From Escherichia coli (GTDB lineage Bacteria > Pseudomonadota > Gammaproteobacteria > Enterobacterales > Enterobacteriaceae), in the NCBI RefSeq assembly GCF_003334255.1, contig NZ_QOWU01000009.1: 64,000 nt of DNA; one strand, given 5' to 3'. The notes under the pieces were generated by a model, which was not told the origin of the DNA, did no database searches, and saw nothing but the letters and a program-made list of their open reading frames with translations. This document shows positions 58,743 to 59,492 of this stretch, piece by piece; position 1 is the stretch's first letter, and each line of letters begins with the position of its first letter. The position numbers and the translations under genes were made by a program.

Positions 58743-59492
58743 ATGATTGAAATAGAATCACGCGAGCTGGCAGATATTCCCGTTCTTCATGCTTATCCTG
58801 TCGGACAAAAAGATACCCCGTTACCGTGCGCGATTTTTTATCACGGCTTTACTTCGTCCAGTCTGGTGTATAGCTATTTTGCCGTTGCGCTGGCGCAGGC
58901 TGGTTTGCGGGTGATCATGCCGGATGCGCCCGATCACGGTAGTCGTTTTAGTGGCGACGCAGCGCGGCGGTTAAATCAATTCTGGCAAATCTTGCTACAA
59001 AGTATGCAGGAATTCACTACTTTACGTGCGGCAATAGCCGAAGAAAAGTGGCTGCTTGATGACCGTCTGGCAGTCGGTGGTGCGTCGATGGGCGCGATGA
59101 CGGCACTGGGGATTACCGCTCGCCACCCCACGGTGAGATGTACCGCCAGCATGATGGGATCGGGCTATTTTACATCGCTCGCCCGTTCACTGTTTCCACC
59201 GCTGATACCTGAAACGGCAGCACAACAGAATGAATTCAATAACATTGTCGCGCCGCTGGCAGAGTGGGAAGCGACAAACCACCTGGAACAACTTGGTGAC
59301 AGACCTCTACTGCTGTGGCATGGCCTCGACGATGACGTTGTGCCTGCCGATGAATCACTACGTTTGCAGCAGGCCTTAAGCGAGACGGGACGGGATAAAC
59401 TGCTAACCTGTTCATGGCAGCCAGGCGTGCGTCACCGCATTACGCCTGAGGCGTTAGATGCTGCAGTGACATTTTTCCGCCAGCATCTTTAA
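58743..59492 (+). CDS. yjfP: Alpha/beta-hydrolase esterase YjfP
   Basis: ORF track 249 aa; GxSxG nucleophile elbow (GGASMGAM). Confidence 0.85.

Follow-up and report, generated by a model that had tools for sequence, protein, structure and literature searches.

A four-base stop-to-stop overlap between the convergent genes yjfP and ulaR of Escherichia coli and its conservation in Enterobacteriaceae

Convergent genes whose coding regions run into each other raise the question of how such a junction originates, what maintains it and where the two transcripts come to an end. In the stretch of Escherichia coli DNA analysed here (64,000 nucleotides of contig NZ_QOWU01000009.1, assembly GCF_003334255.1, referred to below as the window), a chromosome segment that extends from cadB/cadC and tRNA-Phe through to ulaD, this question is posed by yjfP and ulaR. 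According to the list of open reading frames, the coding regions of these two genes, located on the plus and minus strands respectively, have four bases in common.

The overlapping stop codons and their conservation

The junction is made up of the following features:

58743-59492, plus strand: yjfP coding region, encoding an esterase of 249 amino acids (open reading frame list, NCBIfam NF007857 and RefSeq annotation)
59489-60244, minus strand: ulaR coding region, encoding the DeoR-type repressor of the L-ascorbate ula regulon, of 251 amino acids (open reading frame list, NCBIfam NF010034 and RefSeq)
59489-59492, no strand assigned: TTAA tetramer common to both stop codons (window sequence)

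Between 59480 and 59499, the plus strand of the window reads ccagcatctt taaacacgca. The stop codon of yjfP is the TAA at 59490-59492, and that of ulaR is also TAA, the reverse complement of the TTA at 59489-59491. Each outer base of the tetramer has a further coding role: position 1 completes the final leucine codon (CTT) of yjfP as its third base, and position 4, read on the minus strand, does so for the final valine codon (GTT) of ulaR.

Both proteins are matched over their entire length by NCBIfam equivalogs, YjfP by NF007857 (esterase, YjfP family; residues 1-249 of 249, 448 bits) and UlaR by NF010034 (HTH-type regulator UlaR; residues 1-251 of 251, 486 bits), with scores that lie in both cases far above the curated cut-offs. 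The identical 4-bp overlap appears in the RefSeq/PGAP annotation of E. coli strain 300709, whose sequence is 100% identical over this stretch. Taking into account that the reading frame fixes the stop, and that both frames are confirmed to the last residue, neither stop codon is open to re-annotation. A preliminary description of this DNA had given the names, strands and ends of the two genes, the TTAA form of the junction and the 4-bp overlap, and all of these agree with the sequence, the open reading frame list, the NCBIfam matches and RefSeq; the re-annotated stop that it had raised as grounds for withdrawing the overlap is ruled out by the full-length equivalog matches of both proteins. 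An annotation artefact, in which one frame or stop would be wrong and the overlap unreal, is refuted and can be given practically no probability: no support for it was found, the stops are fixed by the frames, the curated equivalogs cover both proteins completely, and the lengths and C-termini of both are conserved across 80 species.

Of 5426 complete E. coli genomes, 5422 contain the locus, the criterion being a match to 80% or more of its 1.6 kb. For a wider survey, one genome per GTDB species was scanned with a back-translated UlaR helix-turn-helix motif, which yielded 111 loci, and both window proteins were then compared with these loci by tblastn. Both genes were found in 82 of them, and they are convergent in every one. 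The junction states of these 82 loci are:

4-base overlap: 68 loci, in at least 23 genus-level groups, including Escherichia, Salmonella, Citrobacter, Enterobacter, Klebsiella, Raoultella, Kluyvera, Leclercia, Lelliottia, Trabulsiella and Yokenella
gap of 0: 6 loci, in Buttiauxella, one Cedecea and one MAG
gaps of +2 and +3: 2 loci
gaps of +9, +12 and +12: 3 loci, in Phytobacter and Kosakonia
14-base overlap: 1 locus, in Entomohabitans
frameshifted assemblies, left out: 2 loci, in Kluyvera genomosp. 3 and Enterobacter sp. EA-1

The 4-base overlap is therefore the state found in 68 of the 82 Enterobacteriaceae species genomes that have both genes; this, and the occurrence of the locus in nearly all complete E. 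coli genomes, shows that the junction is no accident of a single strain. In all 80 intact Enterobacteriaceae loci yjfP and ulaR are adjacent, with a spacer of at most 12 bp. Among the survey loci, yjfP does not lie beside the ulaR homologues of Brenneria, Samsonia, Photobacterium and an Erwinia MAG; since these homologues outside the family have no adjoining yjfP, the tight pair is a feature of Enterobacteriaceae. The aberrant junctions of Kluyvera genomosp. 3 and Enterobacter sp. EA-1 were dropped because yjfP and ulaR are both broken into several frames there, most likely through assembly indel errors in these complete-genome records rather than by pseudogene formation.

Two further records deserve separate mention. 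The one labelled Chryseobacterium sp. 18061 carries an Enterobacteriaceae yjfP-ulaR junction, nearly the same as that of Citrobacter sp. 18056, which suggests that the assembly carries a wrong label or is contaminated. In E. coli ET350, an IS4-family element (ISVsa5-like; positions 1685-2893 of the extracted locus L002) interrupts yjfP towards its 3' end, while the last 81 bases of this gene, the TTAA junction and ulaR are all intact; the insertion implies that yjfP is dispensable in that strain.

With regard to the shared bases themselves, the 68 overlapping loci carry TTAA (44), CTAA (18), TTAG (4) or CTAG (2), that is, all four tetramers compatible with a stop on both strands occur at orthologous yjfP/ulaR junctions. 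Positions 2 and 3 are invariant in all 68. The alternation of T and C at position 1 is synonymous in the leucine codon (CTY) and converts the stop on the other strand from TAA to TAG; that of A and G at position 4 converts the stop from TAA to TAG and is synonymous in the valine codon (GTY). The proteins keep their ends throughout: YjfP, whose identity outside Escherichia is 55-75%, has 249 amino acids and ends in leucine in every intact orthologue except that of Entomohabitans, where it is extended across the 14-base overlap, and UlaR has 251 amino acids and ends in valine in all intact junction states.

The yjfP/ulaR junction is very probably the product of a passive compaction of two tail-to-tail genes, maintained by purifying selection that acts on the ends of both proteins, with transcripts that end inside the opposite gene, probably through the action of Rho. 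The overlap would thus have no mechanism of its own, being the end state of the loss of all intergenic DNA between two convergent genes. Neutral insertions and deletions would alter the spacer for as long as there is one, giving rise to states such as 0, +2, +3, +9 and +12. From a TAATTA junction like that of Buttiauxella (CTT TAA TTA CAC), the loss of 4 nt would produce CTT TAA AC, which contains the TTAA overlap, and neither protein would be altered by this deletion because the valine codon only shifts from GTG to GTT. After the 4-base overlap has formed, no insertion or deletion could occur without harm to one C-terminus or to both. For this reason purifying selection would freeze the junction, and only two doubly synonymous changes would then be permitted, namely between T and C at position 1 and between A and G at position 4. 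This sequence of compaction followed by a ratchet is read from the pattern of variation among species, of which it would be the simplest account. In none of the species examined does the spacer exceed 12 bp, which could also be the result of selection for overlap, and the present data fit both that and a simple ratchet. Translational coupling, in turn, has no place at this junction, since the two stops lie on different mRNAs.

Transcript ends and RNA structure around the junction

The preliminary description had further stated that the overlap leaves no intergenic space for a terminator. This is true by construction, and the result extends to the flanking coding sequences, in which neither the terminator scan nor the alignments revealed a conserved terminator. 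Two structures in the vicinity of the stops have to be considered:

60077-60097, plus strand: weak terminator-like site, with the stem-loop TGCGC-CATT-GCGCA (60077-60090) followed by CTTTTTT, antisense to ulaR codons 48-56 (scan)
59456-59488, no strand assigned: E. coli-specific inverted repeat of 8 bp, formed by AGATGCTG (59456-59463) and CAGCATCT (59481-59488) with a 17-nt loop (folds)

The first of these is the only terminator-like site that the consensus scan found inside ulaR on the strand read through from yjfP. The synonymous positions of its 5-bp stem vary freely in 103 orthologues, in which the valine codons at the stem are GTG (40), GTC (38), GTT (14) and GTA (11), and the alanine codons GCA (38), GCC (28), GCG (24) and GCT (13). 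All five stem pairs are intact in only about one fifth of the 103 orthologues. As an intrinsic terminator of yjfP, this site was rejected because its stem pairing is not kept in orthologues, and it is judged to be a by-product of the codons for the UlaR segment KLKKVRNGA.

On the minus strand, the consensus scan identified no terminator-like site within yjfP, and the fold of this strand is no more stable than that of shuffled sequence (z = -0.48). An intrinsic terminator for ulaR inside yjfP was rejected on these two grounds.

The inverted repeat lies at the 3' end of yjfP and stops one base before the TTAA, a position that would suit a bidirectional intrinsic terminator concealed in the ends of the coding sequences, that is, a hairpin straddling the junction and ending both transcripts near their stops. 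However, its loop is of 17 nt, no U-tract follows the stem on either strand (UUUAAAC on the plus strand and AACGCC on the minus strand), and the hairpin was not called by the simple terminator scan. Nor is the pairing conserved: across the alignment of 81 sequences, 49.8% of the cells are paired, a value equalled or exceeded by 414 of 500 column shuffles; registers slid along the same 81 sequences pair as well as the true one, and the covariation score of the hairpin in this alignment is no higher than that of the controls. A hidden terminator of this kind is essentially refuted and very improbable. The junction hairpin is not a bidirectional intrinsic terminator, neither its hairpin and tract nor its conservation being those of one, and the repeat is judged fortuitous. 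A search of Rfam gave no match between 58500 and 60500, even at E<=1. The yjfP-ulaR junction and its surroundings thus contain neither a conserved intrinsic terminator nor a conserved RNA element.

Under the proposal of passive compaction, each mRNA would end inside the opposite gene. Because no conserved intrinsic terminator is present, termination would most likely be brought about by Rho, acting on the antisense RNA that is left untranslated once the ribosome has been released, or by collision of the polymerases. Untranslated RNA antisense to coding sequence is a preferred substrate of Rho. The strand read through from yjfP is rich in C and poor in G at 59550-59750 (plus strand; 100-nt windows with a GC skew between -0.25 and -0.41), and the RNA of this stretch could plausibly serve as a rut-like region for Rho loading, as judged from base composition. 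On the strand read through from ulaR, only a weaker C-rich stretch is found, near 59000-59100. The 3' ends of two mRNAs that terminate in this way would be complementary, which corresponds to the definition of a convergent excludon. The gene names yjfP and ulaR are absent from the supplements of the SMRT-Cappable-seq study (PMC6131387) and of the 3'-end map published in eLife in 2021 (PMC7815308).

Transcript overlap, comparison with known classes and selection

Strand-specific RNA-seq across the junction has, in effect, already been published, as the pair is listed as an excludon in strain MG1655 (PMC12288877). That survey of 2025, made from RNA-seq data with ExcludonFinder, lists 165 convergent excludons that occur in at least 50% of 58 MG1655 transcriptomes, yjfP-ulaR among them (PMC12288877). 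Excludon pairs in general were reported to have higher synteny, the genes of E. coli excludons were separated by 95 nt on average, and validation by p19 capture of double-stranded RNA was not feasible for convergent pairs (PMC12288877). The listing is not evidence of regulation, since overlapping coding sequences of expressed genes fulfil the coverage criterion almost automatically and the convergent pairs have no double-stranded RNA validation. As in the other convergent excludons of that list, yjfP and ulaR are opposite-strand neighbours with overlapping transcripts, and they are named in it; in contrast to the average separation of 95 nt, theirs is -4, and they were listed by transcript coverage (PMC12288877). 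Moreover, whereas the excludon class is defined by mutually exclusive expression or by RNase III processing, yjfP-ulaR is placed in it solely by being listed.

The published overlap nevertheless bears on an alternative to passive compaction, according to which the loss of the spacer would have been kept by selection because convergent transcription makes yjfP and ulaR antagonistic, either through polymerase collision or through RNase III cleavage of the 3' duplex. If this were true, the level of the ascorbate regulon repressor would be tied to whatever drives yjfP. The presence of the pair in the E. coli excludome and the higher synteny of excludon pairs in general (both PMC12288877) argue for this explanation, as does the short spacer of all 80 intact loci (80 of 80). 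In addition, ChIP-seq has located sigma-S RNA polymerase at the bsmA/yjfP promoter region (PMC4447067), so that yjfP could be condition-specific. A more specific version, in which sigma-S-linked expression of yjfP would lower the output of UlaR, the persistent absence of a spacer being selected and stress or stationary-phase signals tuning the derepression of the ascorbate regulon, must be considered quite unlikely.

Against selection for antagonism, the coverage-based definition that weakens the listing as evidence of regulation, and the lack of feasible double-stranded RNA capture for convergent pairs, have already been pointed out. No sequence or structure is conserved beyond coding needs in the alignment of 81 sequences or in the 103 orthologues, no functional link between YjfP and the use of ascorbate is documented, and the constraint acting on two C-termini fully accounts for the conservation of the junction. 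Selection for antagonism thus appears improbable, although somewhat less so than the specific version linked to sigma-S.

The overlap itself belongs to a class that has already been described. Lillo and Krakauer (2007) found that convergent overlaps peak at a length of 4, and named TTAA, CTAA, TTAG and CTAG as the tetramers involved (PMC2174442). Their count of convergent overlaps came to 58 for E. coli and to 1890 for a set of 58 species, 1218 of these 1890 being of at least 5 nt (PMC2174442). The yjfP/ulaR junction consists of two real convergent genes that share a permitted tetramer, the two properties of the 4-nt convergent stop/stop class. Orientation, length and tetramer set are those of this class, in which any terminator must sit in coding sequence, and nothing of substance differs; what yjfP/ulaR adds is stability over at least 23 genus-level groups, with all four tetramers represented. 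As a class, the overlap is not statistically unusual, being one of the convergent overlaps of E. coli. The co-directional ATGA/TGATG overlaps of 4 nt or 1 nt are also short, include a stop codon and have a modal length of 4 nt (PMC10666635). However, these lie on one mRNA and allow coupling by termination and reinitiation, whereas yjfP and ulaR are on opposite strands and different mRNAs, which makes coupling impossible.

Both the overlap, which was already in the RefSeq annotation, and the overlap of the yjfP and ulaR transcripts (PMC12288877) were known. The sole increment of the present analysis is the survey of species, with its frozen junction and all four permitted tetramers. The locus is a textbook illustration of two stops contained in four bases, of a locked junction and of variation restricted to doubly synonymous changes, and in itself it matters little. 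More generally, not every E. coli gene is followed by an intergenic terminator, and the lack of one entails termination inside the neighbouring gene and antisense overlap.

Other overlaps and strain-variable features of the window

The window holds a second 4-bp convergent stop/stop overlap, with CTAA at 18980-18983, formed by gdx (sugE; plus strand, last base 18983) and blc (minus strand, last base 18980). This pair, too, is in the list of convergent excludons (PMC12288877). It resembles yjfP/ulaR in being convergent, in its 4-bp stop/stop overlap and in its listing as an excludon, and differs from it in having CTAA, so that one of the stops is TAG, and in that the upstream gene is under a guanidine-II riboswitch. 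This known element, also termed mini-ykkC, lies just upstream of gdx/sugE at 18602-18648 on the plus strand (Rfam RF01068, 50.4 bits).

Longer and shorter overlaps also occur. In the region 34684-35860 (RefSeq coordinates of strain 300709), the small open reading frame yjeV and queG form a convergent overlap of 18 bp, and in the same RefSeq annotation queG and nnr form a divergent one of 2 bp. Both yjeV/queG and queG/nnr are present in the published lists of excludons and non-contiguous operons (PMC12288877).

Beyond the other end of ulaR, the ulaG-ulaR intergenic region contains a strong hairpin at 60307-60338 on the minus strand, with a 14-bp stem that includes 8 G-C pairs and a poor T-tail. 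It may be the terminator of ulaG or a REP-like element, and it leaves only about 60 bp for the ulaR promoter.

The coordinates of strain 300709 in RefSeq cannot be applied unshifted to the window, because the initial 4.3 kb are not the same in both and offsets of 1 nt occur. At its left end, the window carries cadB (488-1822, minus strand) and cadC (2187-3725, minus strand), adjoining tRNA-Phe (4345-4417, minus strand). Strain 300709, otherwise 99.9% identical, has a type III restriction-modification system at tRNA-Phe, together with an integrase, in place of the segment 1-4300, which is a strain-variable island at pheU. A smaller difference concerns yjfL, an uninterrupted open reading frame in the window (53689-54168, plus strand) that is annotated as frameshifted in strain 300709 (positions 3771-4168 of the extracted locus L004), consistent with a 1-nt indel between the two. 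Finally, three tandem tRNA genes spaced about 112 bp apart are located at 34151-34447 on the plus strand, and are annotated as tRNA-Gly in RefSeq.
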